DNA of 64,000 nucleotides from positions 783,005 to 847,004 of the forward strand of contig CAWIOS010000012.1 in the NCBI GenBank assembly GCA_963837815.1, given 5' to 3'. Positions 18,086 to 39,431 of the stretch are shown one piece after another. Source of the DNA: Ignavibacteriota bacterium. GTDB lineage: Bacteria; Bacteroidota; Ignavibacteria; UBA10030; UBA6906. Under the pieces are notes generated by a model that was not told the origin of the DNA, made no database searches, and saw only the letters and a program-made list of their open reading frames with translations. Every line of letters begins with the position of its first letter. The stretch's first letter is position 1. A program made the position numbers and the translations under genes.

Positions 18086-18171
18086 GTCCTTCCCTCCGTT
18101 TGCAGTATTAGACAAATATATTGCAGTTTCGGTTTATTTGCAAGAAATTGGAAAAAAGACCGGGATTGCCG

Positions 18172-19423: not shown

Positions 19424-21613
19424 ATGACAATGCCGAAAACAGCGATCCTCCTGTGTGCGATTGCCGGGCTGATTGCGGGCGGGTGCAGCAGGAAGAGCGA
19501 AGGACAGAAGACCGCGGCGCGTTCCGATTCGACGGCCGCCGCGCCGCCGGACACGGCGCTTGCCGCGGAGAGTAAGCCCGTGATCATCAAGTTCATCACG
19601 TGGCCCGATACGCTCACCCCCCAGATCGAGGACATTCCTTCGACGCTCACCTGGAACTATTTCGATTCCACGTCACGTCAGACACTGAGCCCGGCCGAAT
19701 TGAACATCCTCTCGCGGGAAGGATTCTTCGTCCGGGAAATCCCCCCCCGCCCGGACGTTTCAACGGACGACATGGTGGACCGCTACAACGAGCTGTACGT
19801 GTTCAACTACGGCCAGAGCTACAGCACGATCCCGGTGTTCATCTCCTCCGACTTCCTCATGCACGTGTTCCACGTCCTCTTCGACAGGATGTTCCAGAGC
19901 GTGGAACAGAAGAGGTTCCTGCCGATCCTCGATGACCTCACTGCCAGGCTCCTCCGGCAGAGCGTCGAACAGATGCGGAATGCACGCGCACCGCTTATGA
20001 AGGCCGCCGCAAGGGGAAACGTCGCGTTTCTTTCCGTTGCGGCGAAGATCCTGAACGATTCCGTGGACGTCCCGGAGGAAGCGAAGGAACTGACCGGATG
20101 GGAGCTCCGGCTCATCAACGACGCATCGGGGTTTCACGATTCCCCGCTGATGGGATTCCAGGAGGATTACTCCCAGTACAAGCCCCGGGGACATTACACG
20201 ATCAACAGCGACCTGACACGGTATTTCAAGGCCATGATGTGGTACGGACGGAGGTCGTTCACGACGAAATCCGACACGCTCACGCTCCAGGCGGTTCTCC
20301 TGACGCACTTCCTGAGCACACCGGAAAACCGGGAGTTGTGGGAGAAACTGTACAAGCCCACGGAATTCGTGGCGGGGGAATCGGACGACCTGAGTTTTTA
20401 CGACTACGCGGGCATGATGAGGACGACGTACGGGGAGATACTGAATACCGGCGAACTCGCCGATACCGCAAAGCTCCACCGGTTCATGGAGGACGCAACA
20501 CGGCACGCCTCTCCAACAATCTCCGGGAACAGGCTCCGGAATCCGGACAGCGCAAACACGATCGAGCGGGGATTCCGGTTCATGGGGCAAAGGGAAACGC
20601 CGGACGCCTACATATTCTCCGAGTTGACATCACCGCGCGTGGGATCCGACGTTCACCCCCGGAACATGCCCACGGTCCTCGACGTCATGAGCATTCTCGG
20701 TTCCCCCGTCGCGGACGAACTCCTCGAGAAGTACTCCTCCGTTCCGAATTACCCTGAACAGCTCGCAAAGTTGAAGGGTGAGTTCAATGCGTATCCCCCC
20801 GGGGCATGGACGCAGAACCTTTACCTGTGCTGGATCAACGCGCTCAGGCCGCTGATCCAGGAGAAGGGCCCGGGCTTTCCGTATTTCATGAGGGGCCGCA
20901 AGTGGGCAACCAAGGGGCTGCTGACAGCGGTGGGATCGTGGACCGAGCTGAAGCACGACACGTTTCTCCTGTCCAAACAGAGCTATGCCGAGCAGGGAGA
21001 GGGTGAAGACGAGACGGTGCCCACTCCGCCCCCGCAGCCGAAAAGCTACGTGGAACCGGATATCGAGTTCTTCAACAGGATCGTCTACCTTGCCGACAGG
21101 ACGCGCGTGAGATTTGCCGGCCTGGGGCTCCTTCCCGCCGAGTACGAAAAGAAGCTCGGCATTTTCTACGATCAGCTCGTCAATCTCCGCTCCATCGCGC
21201 AGAAAGAGCTTCTGAACGCCGAGATCTCGACGGATGAATACGAATCGATGCTCCTCTTTGCCCAGAAAATAAGCCCGATTATACTCCCCGAGGATGCAGG
21301 GGATATCATCGAGGACCGGTACAAGGAAATGGCGCTTGTCGCGGACACGCACACCGACGCGTTCCCGACAGAGATGCTGGCCCTGGAAGACGCCGTCGGT
21401 GCCCCCCAGCAGATCTACGTCGCCGTGAAAGACAACGGCGGCACGCGCATCTGCATCGGGTACGTTTACAGCGTTTATGAGTTCTCCGCACCGATAGCCA
21501 ACAGGCTCACGGACGAACAGTGGAAAGGGATCGTGTACGCGGCGAACAGGAAGCCCCTCGCACCGCGGGAGCCGGACTGGGCGCGCGGGCTTCGGTCCAT
21601 CGTCCGGCGTTGA
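19424..21613 (+). CDS. DUF3160-like lipoprotein (function unknown)
   Basis: 729 aa with lipoprotein signal (MTMPKTAILLCAIAGLIAGGCS). Size and composition match what I recall for DUF3160. 17 nt downstream of namZ, so probably co-transcribed. Confidence 0.5.
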   Translation: MTMPKTAILLCAIAGLIAGGCSRKSEGQKTAARSDSTAAAPPDTALAAESKPVIIKFITWPDTLTPQIEDIPSTLTWNYFDSTSRQTLSPAELNILSREGFFVREIPPRPDVSTDDMVDRYNELYVFNYGQSYSTIPVFISSDFLMHVFHVLFDRMFQSVEQKRFLPILDDLTARLLRQSVEQMRNARAPLMKAAARGNVAFLSVAAKILNDSVDVPEEAKELTGWELRLINDASGFHDSPLMGFQEDYSQYKPRGHYTINSDLTRYFKAMMWYGRRSFTTKSDTLTLQAVLLTHFLSTPENRELWEKLYKPTEFVAGESDDLSFYDYAGMMRTTYGEILNTGELADTAKLHRFMEDATRHASPTISGNRLRNPDSANTIERGFRFMGQRETPDAYIFSELTSPRVGSDVHPRNMPTVLDVMSILGSPVADELLEKYSSVPNYPEQLAKLKGEFNAYPPGAWTQNLYLCWINALRPLIQEKGPGFPYFMRGRKWATKGLLTAVGSWTELKHDTFLLSKQSYAEQGEGEDETVPTPPPQPKSYVEPDIEFFNRIVYLADRTRVRFAGLGLLPAEYEKKLGIFYDQLVNLRSIAQKELLNAEISTDEYESMLLFAQKISPIILPEDAGDIIEDRYKEMALVADTHTDAFPTEMLALEDAVGAPQQIYVAVKDNGGTRICIGYVYSVYEFSAPIANRLTDEQWKGIVYAANRKPLAPREPDWARGLRSIVRR

Positions 21614-23521: not shown

Positions 23522-25858
23522 TCAATAGCTCACTCTCCCCGTCCCCCGCTGTTCTTTCCGCCAGTCGGCGGAGGTATGGACGTCACACGTCCCGGGACGG
23601 GTCTTGTCCGTAAAATACTCAACGGTCCTGCCGGGACACCACGGGGTCGCGAGTTTTTCCGTCAGCGTGCAGATCGTATCGGCATAGACGCTCGCCGGGC
23701 GTTCGAAGTACTCCAGGGGCATTGCGATCGAGGGATCATCGTAGACGTACCGCATGAACCTTCCCCAGACCGGCGCGGCGGCCCTCCCCCCCTGCCCGTC
23801 CCATGTCGTAAAGTGTACGCTCGGCTCGTCAAACCCCACCCAGACCGCCGCGGAGATCTGCGGCGTGTATCCCACGAACCACGCGTCCGCGAAATCGGTC
23901 GTCGTCCCCGTCTTCCCGGCGGCCGGGAGCTGGAAGTAATCGCGGACGCGGCTCCCCGTCCCGCCGTTGACTACCCCTTCCATCATGGAGGTCATGATGA
24001 AGGCGGTCGCGTCGCTGAAGACCTCGCGGCGCTCGGGGGAATTCTCTTCGATGACGTTTCCGTCCTTGTCCTCGATCCGGAGTATCGACATCGGCTCGAC
24101 GTGGACACCCCTGTCAGCGTAGACGGCGAATGCCGACGCCATTTCGATGGGGGAGATATCGCCGACCCCGAGCGCAAGCGACGTCACGGCCGGGAGGGGC
24201 GAGAAGATCCCCATGCTCTTCGCGTACGCAATAACCTGGTCGATCGGGGCAATTTTCCTCTCCACGGTCCGGACGGCGACCAGGTTGATCGAGTGCTTTA
24301 TCGCCTCCCGTATCGTGGTATCGGGCCCGAACGAACCGTCGAAATTGGACGGTGTCCAGCGCTTGCCGTCGGGCATCATGATTGTCACGGGCTGGTTCTG
24401 AATTTTGGTGACCGGGGAGTACCCGTTGTCGATCGCCACCGTGTACACGAACGGTTTGAACGCAGACCCGACCTGGCGGAATATCTGCGTCGCATGGTTA
24501 AGTCCGTACCGGAACGATCTGAAATTCGCGCCGCCGATCATCGCGAGTACCCCGCCGGTCTTCACGTCGAGCGCGACGAAACCGGTCTCGATCGACGAGG
24601 CCACGCGCCTGACGGAATCCTGGAATACCCTGCTCCTCAGGAGCTGTCTCCTGACGTTGTCCCGTTCGTCGGCAGTCACCGCCATGCGGAACCGGGGCGA
24701 CGAGATGATCGCCTGATCGATCACGCGGACGGCGGCGTCGTGCTGTTTCGACCAGTCCCACTGTTTGTCGAACAGCTTCTGGTAGAGCGCGAGATGCTCC
24801 CCGACCGCCCGGTTCGCGTACTTCTGCATGCGGCTGTCGAGCGTCGTGTACACGGTCAGGCCGTCCCTGTACAGGTCGAAGCCGTATTGTTCCGCCTTCT
24901 TTTTCATCTGCCTGCGAACGTACTCGACAAAATGCGGGGCGATTCCGGCCTCGCCAGCCGCATCCTCAGGGAGAACCTGGAGTTTTTCCGCGGTCCCCTC
25001 TTTCGCAAGCGCGGGAGTGATGTAATCGTATTTCAGCATCTGCGCGATGACAAGGTTCCTGCGGAGCAGGACACGCTCCGGGTGCTTTCCCGAAGGATCA
25101 TAGTAACCTGGCCCCTTCAGCATCGCGATGAGCGTCGCGGTTTCGCCGAGCGTCAGGTCCGCGGGCACCTTTCCGAAATAGACCTGCGAGGCCGAGGCAA
25201 TCCCGTAGGACCCGCGGCCGAAATACACGACATTCAGGTAAAACTCGAGGATTTCGTTTTTCGTAAACGTCCGTTCGAGCTCGATCGACGTCAGAAACTC
25301 ACGGAGCTTGCGTGTGACGGTGTCAAAGACGTTCCTGTCGTTGTGCCCCAGGTAGAGATTACGCGCGAGCTGCTGGGTGATCGTGCTGGCCCCTTCCTTC
25401 AGCCGGAAGGCGAACGCGTTCTTTACCATCGCCTTGGCGAACCGGACAAGGTCGACCCCCCAGTGGCCGTAGAAGTCCTTGTCCTCCGTCGCAATCAGGG
25501 CGTTCACGATCACGGGGGGAACCTCGGCGAAGGAAAGATGCGATCTGTTCTTGACGAAGAACTCGCCGATAACTTCACCGTCCGCAGAGACGACTTTCGA
25601 AGCGAGCTCCGCGCGGGGGTTTTCTATCCGCGAGAGGGAAGGGAGACCGGAGAGGAGATAGTTGAAGTAGACGCCCCCGGCGACGAGAAGAACGAACGCG
25701 ACGGCGGCGGCAGCCAGCGCGGCGCGTGAAAACCGCGCGCGGAGCCTGCTCCTGAGCCTGCGGTAGCGCGGATCGTTGAAATACCGCTCCATCTCCTCCG
25801 GAGTGTACTTCGCCGGTTCTTTTCCGCGCCGGTCCTCTTTCTTTCCTTCGTCAGGCAT
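23522..25858 (-). CDS. mrcA: Class A penicillin-binding protein 1A (transglycosylase + transpeptidase)
   Basis: 778 aa; N-terminal TM anchor; GT51 motifs (EDKDFYGHWGVD, GASTITQQLARN); transpeptidase SxxK (SAFKPF), SxN (KHSIN), KTG (AGKTGTT). Confidence 0.9.
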   Translation of the reverse strand: MPDEGKKEDRRGKEPAKYTPEEMERYFNDPRYRRLRSRLRARFSRAALAAAAVAFVLLVAGGVYFNYLLSGLPSLSRIENPRAELASKVVSADGEVIGEFFVKNRSHLSFAEVPPVIVNALIATEDKDFYGHWGVDLVRFAKAMVKNAFAFRLKEGASTITQQLARNLYLGHNDRNVFDTVTRKLREFLTSIELERTFTKNEILEFYLNVVYFGRGSYGIASASQVYFGKVPADLTLGETATLIAMLKGPGYYDPSGKHPERVLLRRNLVIAQMLKYDYITPALAKEGTAEKLQVLPEDAAGEAGIAPHFVEYVRRQMKKKAEQYGFDLYRDGLTVYTTLDSRMQKYANRAVGEHLALYQKLFDKQWDWSKQHDAAVRVIDQAIISSPRFRMAVTADERDNVRRQLLRSRVFQDSVRRVASSIETGFVALDVKTGGVLAMIGGANFRSFRYGLNHATQIFRQVGSAFKPFVYTVAIDNGYSPVTKIQNQPVTIMMPDGKRWTPSNFDGSFGPDTTIREAIKHSINLVAVRTVERKIAPIDQVIAYAKSMGIFSPLPAVTSLALGVGDISPIEMASAFAVYADRGVHVEPMSILRIEDKDGNVIEENSPERREVFSDATAFIMTSMMEGVVNGGTGSRVRDYFQLPAAGKTGTTTDFADAWFVGYTPQISAAVWVGFDEPSVHFTTWDGQGGRAAAPVWGRFMRYVYDDPSIAMPLEYFERPASVYADTICTLTEKLATPWCPGRTVEYFTDKTRPGTCDVHTSADWRKEQRGTGRVSY

Positions 25859-26299: not shown

Positions 26300-26956
26300 T
26301 CATTCCCCGGTGTCCTTCACAATAATCCCGAGGAGCGCTGCAATCTGGATGGCCTGCACCGAATCGATAATAATCCCCTTCAACTGGCGGCCTTCGACGC
26401 GCATACCGGCGAGGTCCGATCCTCTGAGGTCGACTCCCTTCAGTGTGGTCCCGGGAAAGTCCGCCCCGGACAGATCGCAGCCCTGGAATACCGCCCCGGT
26501 CAGGTCCATCTTCTCCATCAGGGCCCCGCGGAGGGCGCACTTCTCGAACCGAGCCGATCTGAGACGCCCCGACGTGAACATCGCGTTTTCCATCATGCAG
26601 TTCACGAAGAGGAGATCCGCGCCGTTGAATTCGAAGAGCTGCATGCCGGTGAGGCGGCAGCCGATGAATTCCACCCGGTGGCACCTCGCCTTCTGCAACG
26701 ACGCGCCCGAGAGGTCTGAAGCCTCAAACCGGGTGTCAGAGATCCTGGCGTTTGGCAGGCGTGCCCGGGTGAGCGACGCACGGCGGAGGAGAACCCCTTC
26801 AAATGCAATCCTGAGAGCGGATGCATCTCCAAGAACTGCGTCTTCGGAGACCATCGGGCCGTATTCTGATTCATCGTCGAGCGCCCGCAGGTCCCCGGAC
26901 GGAAGATCCGCGGGGAAGCGAGGCGCCTGGACCTGAGAATTCAGCGGAGACTTCAT
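26300..26956 (-). CDS. Pentapeptide-repeat protein
   Basis: 218 aa composed almost entirely of A(D/N)LxG-type pentapeptide repeats (…ADLSGASLQKARCHRVEFIGCRLTGMQLFEFNGADLLFVNC…GADFPGTTLKGVDLRGSDLAGMRV…). Last gene of the long minus-strand array. Confidence 0.75.
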   Translation of the reverse strand: MKSPLNSQVQAPRFPADLPSGDLRALDDESEYGPMVSEDAVLGDASALRIAFEGVLLRRASLTRARLPNARISDTRFEASDLSGASLQKARCHRVEFIGCRLTGMQLFEFNGADLLFVNCMMENAMFTSGRLRSARFEKCALRGALMEKMDLTGAVFQGCDLSGADFPGTTLKGVDLRGSDLAGMRVEGRQLKGIIIDSVQAIQIAALLGIIVKDTGE

Positions 26957-26964
26957 TTGACGGG

Positions 26965-28062
26965 TCAGTCCGCAGGAGCGACGAGAGGCAAATCGATCCA
27001 GGCGAGCCCGATATCGCGCCCCATGTGCGACGTGCTCGATCCTTCCCTGCCGTCATACAGCAACGCGAGGCGTGAACCGACCGGAATGACGCAGGGCATG
27101 CCTATCGTCCCCTTTGCCCACAAGCAATTCCGGGTGTCGAACACAATCGCCCTGTCGTTCACATTCCAGTGGTTCAGATCCTTCGACCAGTAGACCCAGA
27201 TCGCATCGGTGTACTCCACCCCCTTCTCATCGAGGCCGATGTGATTCGTAAAGAGAAACCAGGTGCTGTCCTTCGGCTCGCAGTACAGAGAGGAGTTTTC
27301 GATCTGTTCCGAAAGCGGGACGATCGGCACCGGGTCAACAGACCACCTGCCGTCAATATTGTTCGTGCGCGCGATACCGAGCGTCCGTTTTGTATTATGG
27401 AGCTCGTCGAATATCGAAGCGCTGAAGAACTGGAGATACCCGGCCCCCGATCTAACGATGAACCCGGGGCTTGCCGTTATCGAATAGTAGGTGCCTTCGG
27501 TGGGTTTGAACGGCACAACGTTGTACTCCTTTTCCCACGGGCCCTCCGGTGAAGCGGAACGGGCCTTCAGCGTCATGTACGGAAACGAGGGAATCCTGTC
27601 GGGAGGAGGGGAGGTGTTGGGCGTCCCCATGTAGAACATGTGCCAGGTTCCCCCCTCCCTGTATACCCAGGGCGCGGAGGCGCTTTTCGCGTCAGGCATC
27701 CCGTCTCCCCCCAGACGGAGTGCGGGACCGTGTTTTGTCCAGTGCACCAGATCGGTACTCGTGGCCAGGCACGCAAGCCAGCCGGCCGGGCCGGCGCCGT
27801 CGTAGTGCATGTAATACATACCGCCCGTTTCGAATGCAATCGCCTCCCTCGCTCCGTAGACATCGCAACTGTCGGGCCCGCCTCCGTGCCTGAGGACGAC
27901 GCCGGCGTCGCGCGCCGGCATCCGCCGCGAAGCGTTCGGCCGCCCGTCGGCGTACTTCTTGAAAACGTACTGCGCGTTCTCTCCGGCGGAACCCTCCGCG
28001 CCCCGTCGGCAGGAAACGAATATCACGGACGAGACGAAGAGCATGACGAGACACCGGCTCAT
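26965..28062 (-). CDS. Lipoprotein with five-bladed beta-propeller glycosidase-like fold (GH43/GH32/GH130-DUF377-like)
   Basis: 365 aa; lipobox MSRCLVMLFVSSVIFVSC; repeated blade-like motifs (GGMYYMHYDGAG…LACLATSTDLVHW; GGTWHMFYMG). Family assignment tentative. Confidence 0.5.
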   Translation of the reverse strand: MSRCLVMLFVSSVIFVSCRRGAEGSAGENAQYVFKKYADGRPNASRRMPARDAGVVLRHGGGPDSCDVYGAREAIAFETGGMYYMHYDGAGPAGWLACLATSTDLVHWTKHGPALRLGGDGMPDAKSASAPWVYREGGTWHMFYMGTPNTSPPPDRIPSFPYMTLKARSASPEGPWEKEYNVVPFKPTEGTYYSITASPGFIVRSGAGYLQFFSASIFDELHNTKRTLGIARTNNIDGRWSVDPVPIVPLSEQIENSSLYCEPKDSTWFLFTNHIGLDEKGVEYTDAIWVYWSKDLNHWNVNDRAIVFDTRNCLWAKGTIGMPCVIPVGSRLALLYDGREGSSTSHMGRDIGLAWIDLPLVAPAD

Positions 28063-28108: not shown

Positions 28109-28801
28109 TCAGGACCGGCACTCCCGCACAATCGCGTCGACGTGAAGACGGGACGGGTTGATGCAGTGGATCGACAGGTCCTTCTGCGAGAGAATGAGCG
28201 GCAGCTCCGTGCACCCGAGTATCACCCCCTCGACCCCCGAGGCCTTTTTGATCCGGTTGACTATGGTCACGAGTTCGCTCCGCGATTTGTCCTTGATAAT
28301 CCCCAGCTCGATCTCCTTCATGAGTATGTGCTGGATGCGGGCGATCTCCTCCGGTTCCGGGGTCGTGAGACGGATGTTGAACCTGTCAAATTCGTCCTGG
28401 TAATAATCCGACGTCATCGTGAACCGGGTGCCGAGGAGGCAGAGCGAGCGGACGTTGAGCGTCCGGGCGTATTCCGCGGTGACCGACACGATGCTCAGGA
28501 GGGGGAGATCCGTCTTCGCCTGAATTGCGTCGAACACCGCATGGGGGGTGTTTGAGGCCATCGCACCGATCCCGGCGCCGCACCGCCTGAGCAGCTCGCA
28601 CCGTATGGCAATACGCTGGATCACAGACTCCCATTTCCCCGCGTCGACAAGCGCGTTGAAAGCTGCAAGGTCGATGCTCTCGATCACCATCTCGGGAAAT
28701 CCGGTCTTCTCGTACGAATCCCTGAACGCGGCGATGATGTTCCTGTAATAGTCGAGCGTCGATTCGGGACCGATGCCGCCGATAAGGCCGATTTTCTTCA
28801 T
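28109..28801 (-). CDS. Aspartate/glutamate racemase-family protein with Ser in place of the first catalytic Cys (SNT…GCTE)
   Basis: 230 aa; MKKIGLIGGIGPESTLDYY N-terminus typical of Asp racemases; first active-site motif reads AMASNTPH (canonical CNT), second motif ILGCTELPL retained. Confidence 0.8.
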   Translation of the reverse strand: MKKIGLIGGIGPESTLDYYRNIIAAFRDSYEKTGFPEMVIESIDLAAFNALVDAGKWESVIQRIAIRCELLRRCGAGIGAMASNTPHAVFDAIQAKTDLPLLSIVSVTAEYARTLNVRSLCLLGTRFTMTSDYYQDEFDRFNIRLTTPEPEEIARIQHILMKEIELGIIKDKSRSELVTIVNRIKKASGVEGVILGCTELPLILSQKDLSIHCINPSRLHVDAIVRECRS

Positions 28802-28835: not shown

Positions 28836-29858
28836 TCAGCGCGGCGAGAGATTGGCCGCGAGGTTGTCGCAAAACCTGAAAAACAGATCCCCTGCGAGGA
28901 AAATCTCGCCGAACATCACGCGCAGGTTTTCCTCCGTGAGGCGGTTGAAGTCCTTCTCAAGAGGCGTCGTCAGGACACCGCCGCAATCCACCGCCGCGGG
29001 ACTGAGGAGTATCTTCTCCTCCCCCTGCGCAAAGTAGGCGGAGGGCCTGTGCCTGGCGCGGGGAAACACAACTACCGTCCACTCCCCGGAACCGTACCAC
29101 GCGAGTATGTTCATCATCGGCTCCTCCTTCTCCCCCGTCGTTCCCGCAAGGGCCGACTCCAGGGCGCCAAGGGCCACAATAAGCGACTCCCTATCCGCGG
29201 ACCTGAGCACGATGAACCGGCGGAGCCCTCCTTCGGCGGCGACAACGCGCATCGTTTTCGTATCGGAGAGGACCCTACCCCCCGCCTCCAGGACGCCGAG
29301 CTCGTTTTCTATTGGGAGGAAGCCCTTCTCCCCGGCCTGGAAATGGAGATGGTCCGGCGCCGACGCGCCGCTTCGCGGACCGTTGTACGTCACCAGGTAC
29401 CGCTTCTGCATCGCGTGGGTCAGATCGAGCATCGTCGCGAACGAGGGACCGATCCGCTGGTCGGTGTGAGAAGTGTGGGGAATCGTGAAATGCTCACCGA
29501 ATATCGGGAACGGATTGCAGAGAACGACGTAGCTTCCGGCAAAGAGTATCCCCCGCTGACCTTCGGGAAGGTTCGCCGCGCAGAGGAAGCATTTCCGGTG
29601 GCTTATCGATTCCGCGTCGGTGTTCGCCGAGGAGGAGACGATCCTGGCCGGGTTCCACTGGATGTGAAGTGAACACCCCTCAAGTTCGATCGTCCGGGAG
29701 CGGACATCCTGCAGTCCCGCGTAACCCGTCCGGAGGAGCGGCCATGTTTCCTTTTGCTGCCGGAGGAGCAGGCGCGCGCGGGTGGCAAGATCACTCCCGC
29801 CGCGGAGAGGGAGCTCCCTGTCGGACAGGAGAATGCGCTGAATGGAGGGTTCCATCAT
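28836..29858 (-). CDS. DUF4922/HIT-like (GalT/VTC2-type) sugar-phosphate nucleotidyltransferase or NDP-sugar phosphorylase-like protein
   Basis: 340 aa; CFLC…(zinc-knuckle-like) and HLHFQA (H-phi-H-phi-Q HIT-type) motifs as in GalT/GDP-hexose phosphorylases. Overall resemblance to DUF4922 is from memory. Confidence 0.5.
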   Translation of the reverse strand: MMEPSIQRILLSDRELPLRGGSDLATRARLLLRQQKETWPLLRTGYAGLQDVRSRTIELEGCSLHIQWNPARIVSSSANTDAESISHRKCFLCAANLPEGQRGILFAGSYVVLCNPFPIFGEHFTIPHTSHTDQRIGPSFATMLDLTHAMQKRYLVTYNGPRSGASAPDHLHFQAGEKGFLPIENELGVLEAGGRVLSDTKTMRVVAAEGGLRRFIVLRSADRESLIVALGALESALAGTTGEKEEPMMNILAWYGSGEWTVVVFPRARHRPSAYFAQGEEKILLSPAAVDCGGVLTTPLEKDFNRLTEENLRVMFGEIFLAGDLFFRFCDNLAANLSPR

Positions 29859-29907: not shown

Positions 29908-31401
29908 TTACGGCGCGCGGTGCAGCCGGCGGGCGCGGATCTCGATCGTGCGTATTTTATCCTTGTACAGATTGTTCAGGTTCATCTTCGCAATCCCCGG
30001 GTCCGCGTCCGAATTCCCGTCCCACCTCCGGCAGAGGTAGATCGGCTCATAAATCCGGCCGACGCGGTACCGGCGCGAAACGGCAAGCCCGACCGCGTAG
30101 TCCTCGCCGTAGCTCACGTTCGGGATATTCAGGCGCCTCAGGACCGGGGTGAAGAACGCCCTGGGCGCGCCGAAACCGTTGACGCGGAGCGCGTTGTTCG
30201 GCCCGTTTTCGGGGGTCCACTCCCTGTGATCGACGACTCCCGGGGGGATCTCCCTGAGGTTGAAATCCGTCATCCGGTAGCTCCCGACGACCATCGCGCA
30301 CCTGTCCCGCCGGAACCTGTCGACGATCCTGCTCAGCGTCGAATCATCGAGATACAGGTCATCACTGTCAAGCTGCGCCGCGAACCGGCCGCAGGAGGCG
30401 GAGTGCACCGCTTCGTTCCAGCACCCGCCGATCTGAAGGTCGTGCGCTTCCGGAACGATGTGGATCAGACGGGAGTCACGCGACGCGAACGTCCGGAGGA
30501 TATCGGTCGTCCCGTCCGTCGAATGATTGTCGACGACGATGACGTTGAACGGGAACGAGGCCTGCTGGCGCAGGGCGGAGGTCACGGCGTCGCCGATCGT
30601 GTTGGCCCGGTTGCGCACCGGGATCACGATCGATGCCGTGACGGGAAATTTCCCCTCGTCCAGGTCGACCGTCTCCCTGACAGGCTTCAGCCAGCCCCCG
30701 GTCTTCTTCAGGTGGTGCGTAACGGCTTTCTCCATCTCGAGCTGGACGACGCGATTCTTCGGATCGACGTAGTCGAAAAGCCTGGCCCCCTCCTTCCTTG
30801 TGTCGGGCTCGGTCTTCGTGTAGAGCATTTCGGCGATCCTGAAGACTCCTTTCTTCCTCGCAACGGCAAGCCGGAGGGCGAAGAAGCCGGCGTGGCGGGA
30901 GTCGCCGATCTCCCCGGCCGCCGCCTTCAGCGCGGATGCCTCCAGGGCGACGACGGAGCCGAAGTCGAAATCGTCACGCACGCTCCCCTCCTGGCAGTCG
31001 ATCAGGGGATGCGGGGCCGGGGAGAGACCCTTCACTTCGATGAAATCGCTGTACACCATCCCCTCACCCGTCGCGCCGGCGACGGAGGCCATCCGCTCAA
31101 GGGCGAACTGCCCGAGCCGGAGGGCGACGTCGTGGAGAACCAGGAGCGCATAGGGGGTCACCGTTTTCGCCGCGATCTTCCTCATCGTCGCGGAGGAGTT
31201 CAGCGCGTTGACGCGAAGCGGCGTGCATCCTTTGAACGGGACGGGCGCGCTCCCCGGGGCGAGGACGTACACCTTCCCGACGATGGCGGACCCGGCGAGC
31301 TGCGCGATCGTATGCCCGGCGGCATCGCTTCCGCCGTACGGAACAAACGCCGTGAAGACAGGTTTCGCTCCCGCGGCGGCTTTCGTGTGAGGACGTTTCA
31401 T
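29908..31401 (-). CDS. Two-domain protein with C-terminal family-2 glycosyltransferase (GT-A) domain
   Basis: 497 aa; GT2 signature [21 protein letters not shown]…[12 protein letters not shown]…DSDD (DxD) in C-terminal half; N-terminal about 240 aa of unknown function. Confidence 0.7.
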
Positions 31402-31411
31402 CAGGGTTCCT

Positions 31412-32689
31412 TCAGGTTTTCTTGCCGAAATCCTTGTCGATGGTGATGAGCGCGGTAACGATGAATCCGGGGATGGTGGAGAGCATCACCCAGAGGTAGA
31501 AAGTCGGATACCCGAGCCATTCCTGGAGCGCGCCGCTGAACATGCCGGGGACCATCATCCCCAGAGCCATGATTCCCGTGCAGATCGCGTAGTGCGCGGT
31601 CTTGTGTTCCCCCTCGGAGACCATGATCATATACAGCATGTACGCGGTGAATCCGAATCCGTACCCGAACTGCTCGAGAGCCACGGCGACGTTAATCAGC
31701 AGGAAATTGTCCGGCTGCACCTGCGACAGATAGACGAACATCAGGTCCGGCAGATGCATGACGATGACCATCGGCCAGAGCCAGAACCTGAGCCCCCTGC
31801 GGGGGATGACGAATCCCCCGAGAAGCCCGCCGGCCGTCAGCGCGACGATGCCTACCGTCCCGTACACGATTCCCACATCGCTCGTCGAAAGACCGAGCCC
31901 TCCCTTTGTCCTCGGATCGAGAAGGAACGGCGAGACGAGCTTGATGAGCTGCGACTCGGCAAACCTGTAGAGGAGAAGGAAAGCGAGCGTCGAGAGGATG
32001 CGGGGTCTTGTGAAGAACGCCCCGAAGACTTTGAAGAAATCCGCCAGAGGGGTCGTCACTCCCCCGCTCCGGACCCGGGCGTCGCCGGCAGGGTACGGAA
32101 GCATCAACCTGTGATAGAGGAAGAAGGCGAAGAACATCACGGCAAGTATGCCGAATGTCAGCGACCAGGCGAGCGCCGTATTCCCCCCCGTGTGCGTCTC
32201 GACTGTCCCTGCAAAGAACACGAGCGCACCCTGTCCGGTCACCATCGCGATCCTGTAGAACGTTGAGCGTACGCCCACGAATGCCGCCTGCTCGTGCTCC
32301 TGCAGACCCAGCATGTAGAAGCCGTCCGCCGCGATGTCGTGGGTGGCGGAAGCGAATGCCATGAGCCAGAACAGGACGAGCGTGGCACGGAAGAAGCCCT
32401 GCACCGGGATCGTGAATGCGACCGCGGCGAGCGCAATGCCCAGGATGAGCTGAAGCGTGACGATCCAGAGCCTCTTCGTGCGGACCAGGTCAACAACCGG
32501 TCCCCAGAGCGGCTTGATCACCCAGGGAAGGTAGAGCAGGCTCGTGTAGAGTGCGATATCGGTGTTGGATATGCCCATCCGCTTGTACATGATCACCGAT
32601 ACATTCAGGGCGATGACATACGGGAGCCCTTCGGCAAAGTACAGGGAGGGAATCCAGGCCCACGGGTTGCGTCGTTCAGGCCGGTTCAT
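31412..32689 (-). CDS. ampG: MFS muropeptide permease AmpG family
   Basis: 425 aa, 12-14 TM; AmpG-type N-terminus (…[56 protein letters not shown]…). Confidence 0.8.
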
Positions 32690-33282
32690 GCGCCGGCCCC
32701 TTTTTCGCCGGCCGATGCGGACGGAGGATCAGGCGGCGGGACCGGTGGGACGAGCAGCCTGAATCCGATCAGGTGATTGACTGTCGTTTTCCCCATCGTG
32801 AACGGGGATTCTTCCACAAATGTGAATCCGAGCGCCTTATACCACGCAATCGTCGGGGCGTTTTCGGACATGACGCCGAGCCAGACCCTGTCGTAGCCGG
32901 CCCCCCGTGCGGCGCGGAAAGCCTCCTCCATGAGCTTCGATCCAAGCCCGTGCCCCTGGCACGCGGGCAGGACATAGATCGAGGCGACGTGACAGCGCCC
33001 GGAATCCCGATCGGACGACATGATCATGTACCCGCCCGGATTCCCGTCCAGGAACGCGATGTACCCGCTCGTGGAGGGTTTCCGGAGGTTCCGGACGAGC
33101 GCGTCCGTCGAATAATGCTCGTCGTGGTAGGCCCGGAGGTCCGCCTCGGGGATGAACATTCCGTACGCGGCCTTCCATGTCTCCCAGCCGATTCGCCGGA
33201 CGTCGGGTATGTCACCTTCGGTCCAGGGCCTGATCAACGCAGTGTGAACACCGGGCCCGCTCTCACTCATCGCATCCGTCAA
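32686..33282 (-). CDS. GNAT family N-acetyltransferase
   Basis: 198 aa; acetyl-CoA binding motif (VLPACQGHGLGSKLMEEAFRAARGAGYDRVWLGV). Overlaps ampG start by 4 nt and the amidase 3' end by 20 nt, so translationally coupled. Confidence 0.75.
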   Translation of the reverse strand: MTDAMSESGPGVHTALIRPWTEGDIPDVRRIGWETWKAAYGMFIPEADLRAYHDEHYSTDALVRNLRKPSTSGYIAFLDGNPGGYMIMSSDRDSGRCHVASIYVLPACQGHGLGSKLMEEAFRAARGAGYDRVWLGVMSENAPTIAWYKALGFTFVEESPFTMGKTTVNHLIGFRLLVPPVPPPDPPSASAGEKGAGA

Positions 33283-35056
33283 GAAAATCGTCTATGCCGT
33301 CGACGATCCGACCGGCAATCCTGTGCCGGAACTCCGGATCAATCAGGTTCATCTCATCGGAAGGATTGGAAACAAACGCCATTTCGACAAGGACATTCGG
33401 GAGCTCCGTGGGCGCATTCATCGAGAAATTGAAGCTCCCGACGTTGCCGAAGAGCGGAAGTCCGGTTTTCAGCATATTCCTGATGATCGCCATCGCGAGG
33501 GGACGGTAGCAGATGTATTTATAGAACGTCGCGGTCCCCCGCGTGTTCTCCGGATTTGTCGTCAGTCCGATCGAATTGGAGTGGATGCTTATCAGGATAT
33601 CCGCCCCCGACGAGAGGACCTTCCGCACGCGGTCGGCCATTGGAACGTCGGGATCCCCGTCCCTCGTGAGGATCACGCGGGCGCCGCGGTCCTCGAGCAT
33701 GGATTTAAGATCTTTCACGACGGCAAGATTTATCTCCTTCTCGAGGGCACCGGTTGACCCGAGCGCACCGAGGTTGTCCCCGCCGTGACCCGCGTCCAGC
33801 GCGAACGTGAGCGCCTTGATTTTGAGTTTCTCCGGCTGGCGGCGGACCTTGATGACGAGTCCCGCGGGGTTGTAGCCGATTTCATATCCCCAGATCTGCC
33901 TGTGCTTGAGCTCGATCGTGATCCGGAAGACGCCCGCGGAGGGCTCTGTGTAGTACACGTTCTGGATCTCGCGGGTCGTGAGTTGCTGTATGATCCAGTT
34001 CGTGTTCGACGTCGCGCCGTAGAGATCCACGTTGATCCGCGTCGGTCCGGTCTCCGTCGTCGAAGAGTACGGAAGCCGCAGCGGGATCCCGACCGTCACG
34101 TAGTCGTACTTTTCGTCCCCGTACACCATGCAGTTCTCCGTGAGGGCCGCGGGAAGACGGGCGCCCTTCGGGATCAGGTCCACGTTTTCCGCGGCGATCC
34201 AGGCTTCCTGGCCCGGAGCCAGCGCCACGCGGTACGCGCTCCCGTGCTTCCCCGTAATCGCAAGACGTATCCCGGGATTGATGAACGACATCTTCGCGCC
34301 CCCCAGCCGATCCTCGCCGAGGCCGTAGGCGAGCGCGGGCCGCTCCCCCTTTGTGACGCCGATGTACGGAAAGTCGGCCGGCCTCATCGTGACGGTTCCC
34401 TTCGAGACCGTCTCCAGGGCCGCGCCCGAGCCGTTCTCCAGCCTGAACCTGACCTGATGAGAAGAAAGGGTATCATCATCCCGCACGGTGTACACACCCC
34501 GGTAAATTCCCCCCAGGCCATGGGCGTACGCGGGCTTCACTTCCGTCATCGGGATCCCCAGGTCGCATGACGCTTTGCATCCCGGCGTCCCCTTGAACTG
34601 CACCTCCAGCCGGTCATCTTCGTTCAACCAGACGTCGTCAGAGGGTTCCGTCATGATCGTGTCAATGACAAGGACGGAATCCGGTGAAGTCTCCGGCGGC
34701 GCTTCGCGGATGACAAGGAACGACTTTGAAATGGAATCCCCCTTCGCACCCGTCGCAGTAAGCGTGAACCGGTTTTCGCCGACATTCAGCGTAAGGAGGC
34801 CCGCCGTGGCCCCCGAGGGATAGACCTTCAGGGGGGAGCCGTTGATCGTGAGCCTGTTCCCCGGCACGGTACCCGCGGAGAGCCTGTATGTGCCCGTGGA
34901 AGCCCGAACCGTGTCCGACTCCGGAACGACAAGGCGGATAAAATTCGGGTGCGGGGGAGGGGATTGCTGGGCATCGGCGGAGGCGATCATCGTCAGAGAG
35001 AGGACGAGTGCCACACTCAACGACGCCAGAGGTGTGCGCATGTCAATGGTTTTCAT
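33263..35056 (-). CDS. Periplasmic N-acetylmuramoyl-L-alanine amidase (Amidase_3 / AmiC-like) with N-terminal accessory beta-rich domains
   Basis: 597 aa; signal peptide MKTIDMRTPLASLSVALVLSLTMIASADA (GAGGGA RBS). C-terminal Amidase_3 motifs ALDAGHGGDN…EKEINLAV…ISIHSNS…(Zn ligands H/E/H). Confidence 0.8.
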   Translation of the reverse strand: MKTIDMRTPLASLSVALVLSLTMIASADAQQSPPPHPNFIRLVVPESDTVRASTGTYRLSAGTVPGNRLTINGSPLKVYPSGATAGLLTLNVGENRFTLTATGAKGDSISKSFLVIREAPPETSPDSVLVIDTIMTEPSDDVWLNEDDRLEVQFKGTPGCKASCDLGIPMTEVKPAYAHGLGGIYRGVYTVRDDDTLSSHQVRFRLENGSGAALETVSKGTVTMRPADFPYIGVTKGERPALAYGLGEDRLGGAKMSFINPGIRLAITGKHGSAYRVALAPGQEAWIAAENVDLIPKGARLPAALTENCMVYGDEKYDYVTVGIPLRLPYSSTTETGPTRINVDLYGATSNTNWIIQQLTTREIQNVYYTEPSAGVFRITIELKHRQIWGYEIGYNPAGLVIKVRRQPEKLKIKALTFALDAGHGGDNLGALGSTGALEKEINLAVVKDLKSMLEDRGARVILTRDGDPDVPMADRVRKVLSSGADILISIHSNSIGLTTNPENTRGTATFYKYICYRPLAMAIIRNMLKTGLPLFGNVGSFNFSMNAPTELPNVLVEMAFVSNPSDEMNLIDPEFRHRIAGRIVDGIDDFLDGCDE

Positions 35057-35140: not shown

Positions 35141-36490
35141 TCAGTATATGTTCGCAATGGACGTGCCGGGAAAGTAATGAGAAAGTATGGAGTCGGACTC
35201 GTACCCGAGATCGCCCATGACGGCTGCGCCGATCTGGCAAAGGCCCACCCCGTGCCCCCATCCCGCTCCCGTGAGAACGAAACGGCCGGGAACGCCGCCT
35301 TTGATTTCACTCCTGTCGACCACGAATGCCGAGCTGTACAGGTGCGACGGCGAGAGCGTCCGGCGGATCTCGAGCTCCTTGCCGATCGTCAATACCCTCT
35401 TTTCCCCGACGATCTTCAGGAGCGTGAGCCGCCCCGACGGACCCCGCTCGACCGGCGCAAGGTCAAGAATAGCCCCGAAATCGATGCCGGTTTTCTCCCT
35501 GATGAGCGCGGCGATGTTCTCCTGATCATACTCAGCTTTCCACCGGTAGAAATCGGCCGTTTCCTGATCGTACTTGAGGAGAACCTGTGAGAGGATGCGG
35601 GAGTCCGCCGTGTTGCAGAATGCGCGCGGGGAGCTCCTGATCCATCGGTCCGCCAGATCCTCCCGGCTGACATCGGGGAGAGAAAGAAAGCCGGGAAGGC
35701 GGTCAGACGGGGGAATGTCGGCCACGTTGACAAGGTACGGGATCCCGACGGGCTGCCAGACATTGCCAAACGGCTCGGTGATTCCTCCGCAGGATTTCGA
35801 GAACCGGGCATCGCAGATGCGGCCGTCGTGCATGACCACCTGTCCCCGTGTCAGGTTCACGGCCTGACTGACCGCCGCCGTGTTCGACTTCGTTACACCC
35901 TGGTACCGCTGGCAATGGTCGTCTGCGCAGACGTCGAAGAGCTCGTGTTCCTCCCTGTCGTACCACCTGACAAGGCGATCGCTTTCCCCTGTAATCGCCG
36001 GGAGACGAATTCCCTCCTCTTTCAGCCGGCGCGACCGTTCAATCTGCGCCAGGAGCCAGCTTCGGGAGGTGATCGCGTGCGCCTTCAGGAGATTCATGGA
36101 ACTCCCGGCGCTCATTTCCGACGAGATGACGCTCTCAAGATAGTCTTCGACCGGGACGACATTGATCGCCACGACATCGCTCCCCTTCGTCACGAGCCGC
36201 AGGGCCCCCGTGAACCGCTGGTCTTCTTTCCGCTCCCAGTGGAAGCGGATACCGATGACGACGCTGCGGATGACGAACGAGACCCCCGCCCCCCCGGACT
36301 GAGTCAGGAGAACCCCGGAATCGAACAGGGAACGTTTGCCGCCGCACTCTATGAGTATGGAAGCCCCGGAGACCGAGGCCCGGATCCGCCCGCGGAGAGT
36401 CCCCCCCGATCCCGGGACGTCAAAATCCCCTTCCACGTCCACAGCCGACGCCGTGAGAATGCCGACGGTTATTGTTGGTTCTGCCGTCAT
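35141..36490 (-). CDS. SpoIID/LytB-domain protein (amidase enhancer / lytic transglycosylase-type)
   Basis: 449 aa; hallmark C-terminal SpoIID motif GAGWGHGVGLCQIGAAVMG; start abuts stop of NagZ fusion gene (36490/36492). Confidence 0.8.
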   Translation of the reverse strand: MTAEPTITVGILTASAVDVEGDFDVPGSGGTLRGRIRASVSGASILIECGGKRSLFDSGVLLTQSGGAGVSFVIRSVVIGIRFHWERKEDQRFTGALRLVTKGSDVVAINVVPVEDYLESVISSEMSAGSSMNLLKAHAITSRSWLLAQIERSRRLKEEGIRLPAITGESDRLVRWYDREEHELFDVCADDHCQRYQGVTKSNTAAVSQAVNLTRGQVVMHDGRICDARFSKSCGGITEPFGNVWQPVGIPYLVNVADIPPSDRLPGFLSLPDVSREDLADRWIRSSPRAFCNTADSRILSQVLLKYDQETADFYRWKAEYDQENIAALIREKTGIDFGAILDLAPVERGPSGRLTLLKIVGEKRVLTIGKELEIRRTLSPSHLYSSAFVVDRSEIKGGVPGRFVLTGAGWGHGVGLCQIGAAVMGDLGYESDSILSHYFPGTSIANIY

Positions 36491-36491
36491 G

Positions 36492-39431
36492 TTACTGCCC
36501 GGTTCCTGTCACCCCGAGAGCCCGCATCACGGCATCGTTGACGGCGGGGCGGACCCTGGCGATCTTCTGGTTGGCGCGTGTCGGAAAGACCCGGTTTGTG
36601 AGGAATATGACCGCAAGATTGCGTGACGGATCAGCCCAGATGCAGCACCCGGTGAAGCCGGTGTGCCCGAACGACGCGCCGGAGAAGAGTGCTCCGGCGG
36701 ACGAGCCATGCGGCGACTTCATCTCCCATCCGAGCCAGCGTTCCTGTCCCGGGGCGCGCTTCTCGATGAAATCCGAAACGGTTTTCTCGCTCAGGTAACG
36801 CCTGCCGGCGTAGACTCCCCTGTTGAAGAGCATCTGCATGTATATCGCCAGATCGCTCGCAGTGGAGAAGAGTCCGGCGTTTCCCGACACGCCCCCCATG
36901 AACGCGGCGTTCTCGTCATGGACGGCTCCCCGGACAATGGTCTTCCGCCAGGAAGTATCAAGCTCCGTCGGCGCGCAGCGGGCACGGAGGGATTCCGGGG
37001 GGACGTATGTCGTGTTCCTCATGCGGAGGGGAACGAAGAATTCCCTCTTCACGAAGGCATCGAGCGTCATTCCGGTGACTTTTTCGACGAGTTTCCCGAG
37101 CGTGATGAACCCGAGATCGCTGTACACGGTGGAGTCGCCCGGCGCTGCGACGAGGGCTGTCGCGGCGATCGTGTCGATCACCCCGGCAGGGTCCGGGCAT
37201 TCGAGCCAGAGCCTGCGGAAGGGGGGAAAGCCTCCCCTGTGGAGCAGCAGGCTGCGGATTGTGACTCCGGCCTTCTGCCCGGTTTCAAACCGGGGGAGGT
37301 ACTTTGCGACCGGATCATCAAGCCCGATCCTCCCGCTGTCGACAAGTTTCATGACGGCCGACGTCGTTGCAATGACTTTCGTGACGGATGCGAGATCGTA
37401 CATCGTCCCCTCGTCCACAGGAGGCGAGGCAGGATCGTATGTCAGCCTCCCGAACGACCTGTCGTAGACGAGCAATCCGTCTTTGACGATGGCGAGCTGG
37501 CCCCCGGGAAACGCCGAATCCGCCACGGCGCTGTTGACGATGCCGTCCACTCGCTGCAGGTCTTCGGGATCAAATCCCGCCAGGGACGGGTCATCGCGCC
37601 TGAGCTGCGTCTGCGGAAGATCCAGGCCGGTTCCGAAGGGGTATTTCCCCGGAATGGAGACAGGGAGCCGGCCGTGCACCGGGATCTCGCCGAAGAGAGC
37701 TTCGGCCGCCGCTTCGCTTACAGGCTCGTCGTCGCCGTAGAGGCAGACGATCGATCCGGCATCCGGGATGCTCCCGGCGATATACGGGTTCCCGAATGCA
37801 AGGACAACGAGGGGGGTGTTCGTCTCCGCGACACGGGCGGCGAACGTGCGGAGGTAGTCGGGAAGCTCGATTCTCCCCGATGCCGTGCGGACTTTCACAA
37901 ACAGGGCCAGTATTGCCGCGTCTCCTTTCCGTATGCGTGTGACCGCGTCGTTCAGCTCGCGCACGTCGCTCCCGGGGGTAAGGCGGAGTATGTCGCTCCC
38001 CGGCGAGCGGTGCCGGAGGAGCTGGGCGAAGTAGGCCCCGACGGGTTCGCTTGTGGCAGGGCTGCCCGGCCTGTCCACGTCAGTCCTGTCATCCTCCGTG
38101 TCCCCGGCAAGAACGGCGACGATGTGCATGGGGCCGTCAGGGGGGAGGGGAAGCAGGCCGTTTTTGTTTCTGAGAATTGTGACGGCGTCCTGGGCGATCT
38201 CACGGGCAAGATGCCGGTTCGGCCTCGTGCCGATATGTGCGCCAATGGCGTCAATATCAACGGTCCGCCCCCTGTCAAGCCCGAGCTGATGCTTCATTGC
38301 GAGTATCCGGCGAACGGACTCGTCCACCCGCTCCCGGGGTATTTCCCCCCGCCGGACGGCAGCCACCACGGCGTTCACCGCCAGATCGGGATCCGGGGGA
38401 ACGAGGAGGATGTCCGCCCCCGCCCGGACGGCAAGAACCGCCACGGTATCCGCCGGGTACCCGCGCGTGAGCGCCCGCATCTCCAGTCCATCGGTGACGA
38501 TCAGCCCGTTGAACCCGAGTTCCTTCCTGAGGAGGCTCGTCACCATCGCCGCGGAGAGGGAGGCGGGGAGGCCGAGTGAATCAAGCGCGGGAACCGCAAG
38601 ATGGCCGATCATGACGGACTGGACGCCGGCGTCGACGGCCGCCCGGAACGCGGCCAGCTCCACCGTGTCGAGACGGGCGCGTGAAAGATCAATGACGGGG
38701 AGTTCGATATGCGAATCGGTTCCCGTGTCACCGTGTCCCGGAAAATGTTTCACGGTGGCAATGCAGCCGCCGTCGATTGTCCCCCGGATGAACGATGCCA
38801 CCATCGTGCGGACGAGCGCCGGGTCATCGCCGAACGAACGGGTGTTGATGACCGGGTTGAGAGGATTATCGTTGATATCGGCAACCGGCGCATAGTTCTG
38901 GTGTATTCCGATTGTGCGCGCTTCCACAGCCACCGCTTTCCCCATCCGGTAGGCGTACTCTGCATTCCGCGTCGCCCCGAGCGCCATGGCATCCGGAAAC
39001 CGTGTCCCCCTCCTGACGCGCATGGCGATCCCCCGCTCGAAGTCGGACGCGACAAGGAGGGGTATCCGGGAGAGGGACTGCAGCCGGTTGAGGAGGACCG
39101 CCTCGGAATAGACGTCCCCCTGGGCCATGATGATGCCGCCGACCCTGCGGACCGTGACGAGCCGCTCGAGGCGCTCAAAGAGGTCGCTGTCGGTGCTGTA
39201 GTAGTGACCGAACGCGCGCACCATGACCATCTGGGAAACCTTCTCTTCGAGCGACATCGAGGAGAGAAGCGAGTCGAGTGCTCCCGGGGTCCCCCAATCG
39301 GAGGGGACGGCGGGCTGGAGCGGCGCGGCGCGTCTCTGCAGCTGCGCGGGGATCGTTGCAGGGGGAGGTGCACATGCGGAGAGCAATCCGGAGAGAACGG
39401 CAGCCGAAAGGAAGAGGAGATGTCTTTTCAA
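36492..39431 (-). CDS. Lipoprotein fusion: GH3 beta-N-acetylhexosaminidase (NagZ-like) + serine beta-lactamase/PBP-like (AmpH/class C-type) domain
   Basis: 979 aa; TTG start at 39431 with AAGGAGGA RBS; lipobox LLSAC. GH3 N-terminal motifs (KHFPGHGDTGTDSH, IVTDGLEM); C-terminal domain with S-x-x-K (LASVTKVIATTSAVMKL) and penicillin-binding fold; ends HTGFTGCCIWADP. Confidence 0.8.
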   Translation of the reverse strand: MKRHLLFLSAAVLSGLLSACAPPPATIPAQLQRRAAPLQPAVPSDWGTPGALDSLLSSMSLEEKVSQMVMVRAFGHYYSTDSDLFERLERLVTVRRVGGIIMAQGDVYSEAVLLNRLQSLSRIPLLVASDFERGIAMRVRRGTRFPDAMALGATRNAEYAYRMGKAVAVEARTIGIHQNYAPVADINDNPLNPVINTRSFGDDPALVRTMVASFIRGTIDGGCIATVKHFPGHGDTGTDSHIELPVIDLSRARLDTVELAAFRAAVDAGVQSVMIGHLAVPALDSLGLPASLSAAMVTSLLRKELGFNGLIVTDGLEMRALTRGYPADTVAVLAVRAGADILLVPPDPDLAVNAVVAAVRRGEIPRERVDESVRRILAMKHQLGLDRGRTVDIDAIGAHIGTRPNRHLAREIAQDAVTILRNKNGLLPLPPDGPMHIVAVLAGDTEDDRTDVDRPGSPATSEPVGAYFAQLLRHRSPGSDILRLTPGSDVRELNDAVTRIRKGDAAILALFVKVRTASGRIELPDYLRTFAARVAETNTPLVVLAFGNPYIAGSIPDAGSIVCLYGDDEPVSEAAAEALFGEIPVHGRLPVSIPGKYPFGTGLDLPQTQLRRDDPSLAGFDPEDLQRVDGIVNSAVADSAFPGGQLAIVKDGLLVYDRSFGRLTYDPASPPVDEGTMYDLASVTKVIATTSAVMKLVDSGRIGLDDPVAKYLPRFETGQKAGVTIRSLLLHRGGFPPFRRLWLECPDPAGVIDTIAATALVAAPGDSTVYSDLGFITLGKLVEKVTGMTLDAFVKREFFVPLRMRNTTYVPPESLRARCAPTELDTSWRKTIVRGAVHDENAAFMGGVSGNAGLFSTASDLAIYMQMLFNRGVYAGRRYLSEKTVSDFIEKRAPGQERWLGWEMKSPHGSSAGALFSGASFGHTGFTGCCIWADPSRNLAVIFLTNRVFPTRANQKIARVRPAVNDAVMRALGVTGTGQ

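Follow-up and report, generated by a model that had tools for sequence, protein, structure and literature searches.

A putative one-thiol amino-acid racemase encoded at the variable 3' end of a gene cluster for peptidoglycan turnover in an uncultured Bacteroidota lineage

The window analysed here, a 64,000-nucleotide stretch from an Ignavibacteriota bacterium (GCA_963837815.1, contig CAWIOS010000012.1, positions 783,005 to 847,004 of the forward strand), carries a run of minus-strand genes in which a racemase-family reading frame lies among genes for cell-wall turnover. The features are given below in window coordinates, together with the motifs of the racemase-family protein that are discussed later.

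46342-48096, minus strand: class-A beta-lactamase-like protein
40379-42913, minus strand: Amidase_3 protein carrying Big_5 domains and, at its C terminus, a T9SS sorting signal
39435-40373, minus strand: BadF/BadG/BcrA/BcrD-type ATPase, sugar-kinase-like
36492-39431, minus strand: 979-aa protein joining a GH3 N-acetylglucosaminidase-like (NagZ-like) domain to a PBP4B/AmpH-like beta-lactamase-fold domain
35141-36490, minus strand: SpoIID/LytB-domain protein
33263-35056, minus strand: N-acetylmuramoyl-L-alanine amidase (Amidase_3, with a weak AMIN match)
32686-33282, minus strand: GNAT acetyltransferase
31412-32689, minus strand: homologue of the AmpG-family muropeptide MFS permeases (TIGR00901, 171.7 bits, under the cut-off of 350)
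29908-31401, minus strand: GT2 glycosyltransferase, 497 aa, the N-terminal ~250 aa of which have no assignment
28836-29858, minus strand: DUF4922/GDPGP1_C protein, GDP-hexose-phosphorylase-like, upstream of the racemase gene
28109-28801, minus strand: racemase-family reading frame of 230 aa, starting MKKIGLIGGIGPEST; PF01177/TIGR00035, Asp/Glu/hydantoin-racemase family
28541-28558, minus strand: motif A82-S83-N84-T85-P86-H87, at the first catalytic Cys position (Ser83 codon TCA, nt 28553-28555)
28307-28315, minus strand: E163-I164-E165, in which E165 aligns with PhAspR Lys164, a charge reversal
28199-28216, minus strand: motif G196-C197-T198-E199-L200-P201, with the second catalytic Cys retained (Cys197 codon TGC, nt 28211-28213)
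26965-28062, minus strand: 365-aa five-bladed-propeller-like protein downstream of the racemase gene, with sub-threshold matches to GH43 and GH130 (beta-1,2-mannoside phosphorylase or mannosidase)
26300-26956, minus strand: pentapeptide-repeat protein (Qnr/HetL-like), the last gene of the co-directional run
26157-26132, minus strand: terminator-like hairpin with a 10-bp stem, 3' of the pentapeptide-repeat gene
23522-25858: PBP1A gene
19424-21613, plus strand: DUF3160 protein
18121-19407, plus strand: exo-beta-N-acetylmuramidase NamZ

The racemase gene is separated from its co-directional neighbours by gaps of 34-49 bp, and GC content is even across the region (58-66%). A promoter and terminator scan stayed at background, the sole suggestive element being the hairpin that follows the pentapeptide-repeat gene, and an Rfam scan of the window gave no matches. 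A preliminary description of this DNA had placed the gene among murein-catabolic neighbours, and the AmpG-like permease, Amidase_3 amidase, SpoIID protein, NagZ-PBP4B fusion, BadF/G-type kinase and NamZ are all present, so that 'murein-turnover operon' is a fair description of its surroundings. The wall-degrading genes around the operon suggest that the organism degrades extracellular peptidoglycan and not just its own.

The 230-aa protein has no signal peptide and is therefore presumably cytoplasmic. It belongs to the Asp/Glu/hydantoin racemase superfamily: PF01177 was matched at E 2.9e-33 over residues 7-223 (Pfam HMM), and an AF2 model built on 26 homologues (pLDDT 92.3, pTM 0.88) has the two-domain alpha/beta fold of this superfamily and aligns with solved members at TM 0.85-0.92, with values of 0.92 for EcL-DER (5HRA), 0.88 for PH1733 (2ZSK) and 0.87 for PhAspR (1JFL) on superposition. 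The NCBIfam model TIGR00035 ('amino acid racemase', asp_race) is exceeded comfortably, at 154.3 bits against a cut-off of 93.1. The protein falls well under the curated cut-offs of the YgeA/EcL-DER equivalog NF007569 (122.4 bits against 417; it has Ser rather than Thr at position 83 and keeps Cys197), of the cysteate racemase CuyB model NF052483 (109.7 against 190) and of the glutamate racemase MurI model TIGR00067 (31.1 against 146.65). CuyB and MurI thus share its Pfam family and give partial NCBIfam matches, but the surroundings typical of them (CuyA, mur genes) are absent around the window gene, and there is no PALP/CuyA gene within its operon. Nor is it a canonical two-thiol aspartate racemase of the PhAspR type, since Ser83 and Cys197 lie opposite Cys82 and Cys194, and Asn49 and Glu165 stand at the positions aligned with the basic residues Arg48 and Lys164. 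In passing, NCBI gives the name 'cysteate racemase' to many Thermococcales orthologues of the P. horikoshii aspartate racemase, an enzyme defined by experiment; the name has apparently spread from the CuyB model and may lead to misannotation.

The register of the two motifs was established by HMMER alignment to solved structures and by MAFFT L-INS-i, for which the P. horikoshii aspartate racemase sequence was checked against PDB 1JFL. Ser83 aligns opposite Cys82 of PhAspR (1JFL), Thr83 of EcL-DER/YgeA and Ala81 of PH1733, and Cys197 opposite Cys194 of PhAspR and Cys197 of YgeA; by this alignment Ser83 is at the first-base position of the family. Among 119 close full-length homologues Ser83 is present in 117 and Cys197 is the sole invariant cysteine, alongside the equally invariant H87, E163 and H220, while E165 is found in 118. 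No alternative conserved first cysteine exists within this set: three others (C68, C74, C213) vary, and a further two (C121, C228), although ~90% conserved, are so in the close clade only, position 121 being Leu in PH1733 and Ala in YgeA. The preliminary description had proposed an Asp/Glu-racemase-family enzyme with Ser in ASNTPH at the first Cys position and an intact GCTELP motif, and translation, PF01177, TIGR00035 and the alignments all bear this out; the alternative that it had allowed for, a true first catalytic cysteine lying elsewhere, was not found. Its analogy to the Thr/Cys enzyme YgeA likewise holds, the two proteins having the same fold and the same numbering.

We also considered whether Ser83 might be a sequencing error or the mark of a pseudogene, and rejected both. 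The reading frame is intact, the gene is under purifying selection (dN/dS 0.07-0.14 across four orthologues), the TCA codon is two changes away from a TGY cysteine codon, and all four TCN codons are used for this serine across the homologues.

The serine had been presented as replacing a catalytic cysteine; it proves to be the norm in this branch of the family. In the best 120 database matches (46-100% identity), 118 have Ser within x-A-S-N-[TS]-P-H and all 120 have Cys within [GA]-C-T-E. A wider search used one sequence per 50%-identity cluster of ~15 billion proteins, and among its best 150 representatives position 83 was Ser in 61, Ala in 61, Thr in 11, Gly in 8 and Cys in only 6. A motif scan of 80 GTDB genomes from many bacterial phyla and some archaea, in which the best match to the racemase-family protein was 52% identical and the window's own lineage was not recovered, gave a similar spread (Ser 27, Ala 24, Cys 3, Thr 2, Val 1); the other 23 of the 80 sequences fell outside the motif pattern, and those re-examined were G-G-T-E forms. 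The two dyad columns were left out when a neighbour-joining tree was made from 137 sequences; on this tree Fitch parsimony requires at least 45 state changes at position 83, against 11 at position 197. Other positions are near-invariant whatever the dyad, namely E13, S14, T15, Y18, Y19, S42, N84, T85, H87, G124, T125, T128, M129, E163, T198, E199, P201 and H220. Judged from these sequences, position 83 in this branch is a labile small-residue site, of which Cys is the rarest common state, and Ser83 is the branch norm rather than a singular substitution, Thr and Ala variants having already been described. We found no characterised natural Ser/Cys member in the open-access literature.

Characterised relatives indicate what a protein with one thiol might do. 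The best match both by sequence (E 1e-46) and, on E-value, by structure (36% identity, TM 0.88) is PH1733 of P. horikoshii (PDB 2ZSK), an 'aspartate racemase homologue' that likewise has the N-T-P-H and G-C-T-E-L-P motifs, lacks the first Cys and keeps the second. It differs in being archaeal and in having Ala at two sites, the first position and 165, where the window protein has Ser and Glu respectively. In the account of PMC12838360, which cites Kita 2009 for the point, PH1733 (Ala/Cys) was inactive as a racemase on L-/D-Asp and Glu, the two substrates tested. EcL-DER/YgeA (PDB 5ELL, 5HQT, 5HRA), which was first described as specific for L-Asp and L-Glu and later as a broad, slow racemase acting physiologically on homoserine (PMC12838360, PMC8142540), resembles the window protein in fold, in the hydroxyl residue Thr83 facing Cys197 with identical numbering, and in being a stand-alone, cofactor-free protein of ~230 aa; it is only 30% identical, however, with a C-T-N-T-M-H motif, Trp at 12 and Cys at 165. 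The canonical PhAspR (PDB 1JFL/2DX7) shares the fold, N-T-x-H, G-C-T-E and the second Cys, but is 26% identical and has a two-Cys dyad and Arg48/Lys164 in place of Asn49/Glu165.

A further relative is RacX of Halocola ammonii (Ala79/Cys193). This one-thiol enzyme comes from the Flavobacteriales, a member of the phylum-level group to which the host probably belongs; it is fast, bidirectional and broad, acting best on L-Lys (kcat/Km 151 s-1 mM-1) in a panel that did not include Asp or Glu (PMC12838360). Its activity with Ala79 shows that the first Cys is dispensable, and an A79C variant showed a shifted kinetic bias and nothing more (PMC12838360). Mutagenesis found the N-T and T-x-x-T residues of RacX to matter for activity (PMC12838360), and the window protein keeps the N-T pair and, as T128, the equivalent of RacX Thr124. 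RacX differs from it in having Ala rather than Ser, and its genomic context has not been described as related to the cell wall. The two cysteine positions are also unequal in OpaE, another member of the superfamily, in which C90S at the first position keeps 4.8% of activity and C199S at the second 0.3% or less (PMC12661438).

On this footing we regard the window protein as an as yet uncharacterised one-thiol amino-acid racemase of the PH1733/YgeA/RacX-like kind, its activity being predicted. A less probable reading is that the protein is no racemase at all, but a single-thiol enzyme of other chemistry or a catalytically silent binding protein. Arylmalonate decarboxylase, with a Gly/Cys pair, is a non-racemase member of the same superfamily, and such decarboxylases are among the distant structural matches; PH1733 is, in the account available for it, without racemase activity on the substrates tried, and position 83 is evolutionarily free. 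Moreover, ~30 of 132 representatives lack both cysteines (G-G-T-E or A-G-T-E, that is Ser/Gly or Ala/Gly) and keep the rest of the polar network. Against this, the TIGR00035 cut-off is exceeded, the N-T and T-x-x-T residues that are important in active RacX are kept, the decarboxylases match at TM ~0.5 only, and Cys197 is invariant in the close clade. We therefore consider a function other than racemisation unlikely.

The members of the branch without both cysteines, which include proteins of Pyrinomonadaceae/Acidobacteriota (L051:8001-8696, L059:8001-8699, L061:7932-8696), cannot, on their residues, be thiol racemases. As they make up about a quarter of the branch, thiol racemisation may not be its common function. 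One could go further and suppose that the whole PH1733-like branch works independently of a thiol pair, with an invariant polar network (E13, S14/T15, Y18/Y19, N84/T85/H87, T125/T128, E163, T198/E199 and H220) carrying out proton transfer, positions 83 and 197 modulating it, and the window protein having been recruited to deal with D-amino acids from imported muropeptides. If true, this would explain both the free switching between Ser, Ala, Thr, Gly and Cys at position 83 and the quarter of the branch that lacks Cys. We think it very unlikely to be the correct account.

Returning to a one-thiol racemase, the substrate can be addressed through the residues around the pocket. In PhAspR, Arg48 and Lys164 are what we take to bind the side-chain (beta-)carboxylate of Asp. 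Among the 120 orthologues retrieved with PhAspR, a phylogenetically narrow set in that it consists of Thermococcales aspartate racemases only, at 66% identity or more, Arg48, Lys164 and Cys194 are present in every sequence and Cys82 in 119, the exception having Ala82 as in the 2DX7 chain. In the window protein the Arg48 position is Asn49, within a segment that MAFFT L-INS-i aligns poorly, and the Lys164 position is Glu165, as in 118 of the 119 members of its clade; the latter is Ala in PH1733 and Cys in YgeA. A conserved scaffold for binding an alpha-amino acid remains (E13-S14-T15, Y18-Y19, N84-T85, H87, G124-T125, T128, E163, T198-E199, H220). Because Arg48 and Lys164 are missing, with an acidic Glu165 at the latter position, and because of the preferences of the characterised relatives, we suggest, with less confidence than for the catalytic mechanism set out below, that Asp and Glu would not be substrates and that the protein would instead act on one or possibly several amino acids of neutral or cationic type (Lys, Orn, DAP-like, homoserine-like). 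Such substrates are mildly favoured by the charge reversal at 165 taken with the preferences of the relatives.

These observations bear directly on the function first proposed for the gene, in which a Ser/Cys racemase would turn D-Glu or D-Asp released from muropeptides, or the D-centres of DAP, into L-forms for assimilation. The co-directional arrangement, the short intergenic gaps and the presence in the same block of an AmpG-like permease, an amidase, a SpoIID protein and a NagZ-PBP4B fusion speak for it, as does the retention of this placement in orthologues of 74-93% identity; crystals of EcL-DER, to judge from the PDB titles, bind Asp and Glu. The best match, PH1733, is nevertheless inactive on both in the report quoted above, the other relatives prefer homoserine or Lys, the residues at positions 48 and 164 of PhAspR are not conserved, and the scores against MurI (31 against 146.65 bits) and the YgeA equivalog (122 against 417) are far under the cut-offs; in addition, the same cluster occurs in a sister lineage with no racemase in it, and elsewhere the genes next to Ser/Cys homologues are unrelated to those found here. 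Homology, pocket residues and comparative context thus offer no support for D-Glu or D-Asp as the substrate, and we regard this form of salvage as improbable.

The suggestion that the enzyme might racemise preferentially in one direction, and so give net D-to-L conversion, does not stand. For a reaction with Keq = 1 the Haldane relation demands equal kcat/Km in both directions. YgeA itself, the enzyme invoked for such a preference, has a kcat/Km of 0.76 for both homoserine enantiomers (PMC8142540). With an equilibrium constant of 1, flux could be drawn one way only if the product were consumed downstream.

The proposed link to the operon fares better, but only in part. What stands is that the adjacency of the DUF4922 gene and the racemase gene is kept in orthologues of 74-93% identity, and that the block through the racemase is retained in orthologous loci with racemases 93, 83, 79 and 74% identical, the genes after it varying. 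The link is restricted to one lineage, however. In a sister Bacteroidota lineage (L091), with 63% identity between the DUF4922 proteins, the cluster is the same except that no racemase is present, the order being NagZ-PBP4B, SpoIID, amidase, GNAT, AmpG, GT2, DUF4922, small hypothetical, GH43-like and PBP1A; two further, more distant lineages also lack the racemase, which is missing from the same cluster in L092. Ser/Cys homologues at 50-54% identity lie in unrelated neighbourhoods, and when 86 genes neighbouring 23 Ser/Cys loci in other phyla were surveyed with Pfam, no partner recurred. The gene is accordingly not a peptidoglycan-recycling component conserved beyond one lineage. Since it is kept at 74-93% identity, absent from the sister lineage and without shared context elsewhere, the racemase is an accessory of one lineage, located where the cluster varies at its 3' end. 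Its placement is compatible with the handling of muropeptide-derived amino acids, for which this is weak evidence.

The position of the gene beside wall enzymes also brings to mind synthesis rather than salvage, the protein making a non-canonical D-amino acid, such as D-Lys, D-Orn or D-Ser, for incorporation into peptidoglycan or its remodelling. Here one can point to the PBP1A gene, which follows the block in the window, in L002 and in L091, and to the characterised relatives, which are broad-spectrum producers of D-amino acids. No gene next to that of the racemase encodes a ligase or transferase with a D-amino acid as its expected substrate, however, and the racemase's dispensability for the cluster in the sister lineage and lack of conserved context in other phyla argue against such a role as well, which we hold to be quite unlikely.

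Several features of these clusters are worth recording independently of the racemase. The GT2 and DUF4922/GDPGP1-like genes form a conserved pair, present in the window, L091, L092 and L093, which lies within the peptidoglycan-turnover clusters of several Bacteroidota lineages and stands alone in an Ignavibacteriales MAG; this pair may serve in the salvage of wall sugars. The closest named homologues of the DUF4922 protein belong to MAGs of Bacteroidota and Ignavibacteriales, which, along with the T9SS sorting domain, makes an uncultured Bacteroidota bacterium the probable host. The NagZ-PBP4B fusion recurs in every related cluster that we saw (L087, L089, L091, L092). The 365-aa GH43/GH130-like gene follows either DUF4922 or the racemase in related loci, and is found downstream of the racemase in some of the orthologous loci only. 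A small hypothetical gene (142-177 aa) that is absent from the window precedes the GH43-like gene in L087 and L091.

Taken together, the reading that we favour, with a probability somewhat above even (about 0.55), is of a racemase that works with one thiol and no cofactor, probably on amino acids of the neutral or basic kind, and whose gene joined an operon for cell-wall recycling in a single lineage. According to this model, the thiol or thiolate of Cys197 would take or return the alpha-proton on one face of the substrate, while on the opposite face the proton would be handled by water or by a hydroxyl positioned by the small residue at 83, a step that must also occur in active RacX with its Ala79/Cys193 pair. 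Ser83 would then probably tune catalysis rather than serve as an indispensable base. The flanking of the substrate by Ser83 and Cys197, and the location of Glu165 near the pocket, are geometries that we infer from the alignment. In this uncultured Bacteroidota lineage the gene would have been inserted where an operon for peptidoglycan turnover varies at its 3' end, and there the enzyme plausibly interconverts D- and L-amino acids tied to muropeptide recycling or wall editing, in a net direction that would be set by downstream consumption and not by the enzyme.

For the biology of uncultured Bacteroidota, a possible connection with the recycling of muropeptides is a secondary and weaker lead. 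The practical value of the analysis lies in the correction that it brings to the family: a Ser/Cys pair is about as common as Ala/Cys among close representatives, and Ser/Cys proteins such as this one would belong to a large and widespread group of one-thiol racemases.
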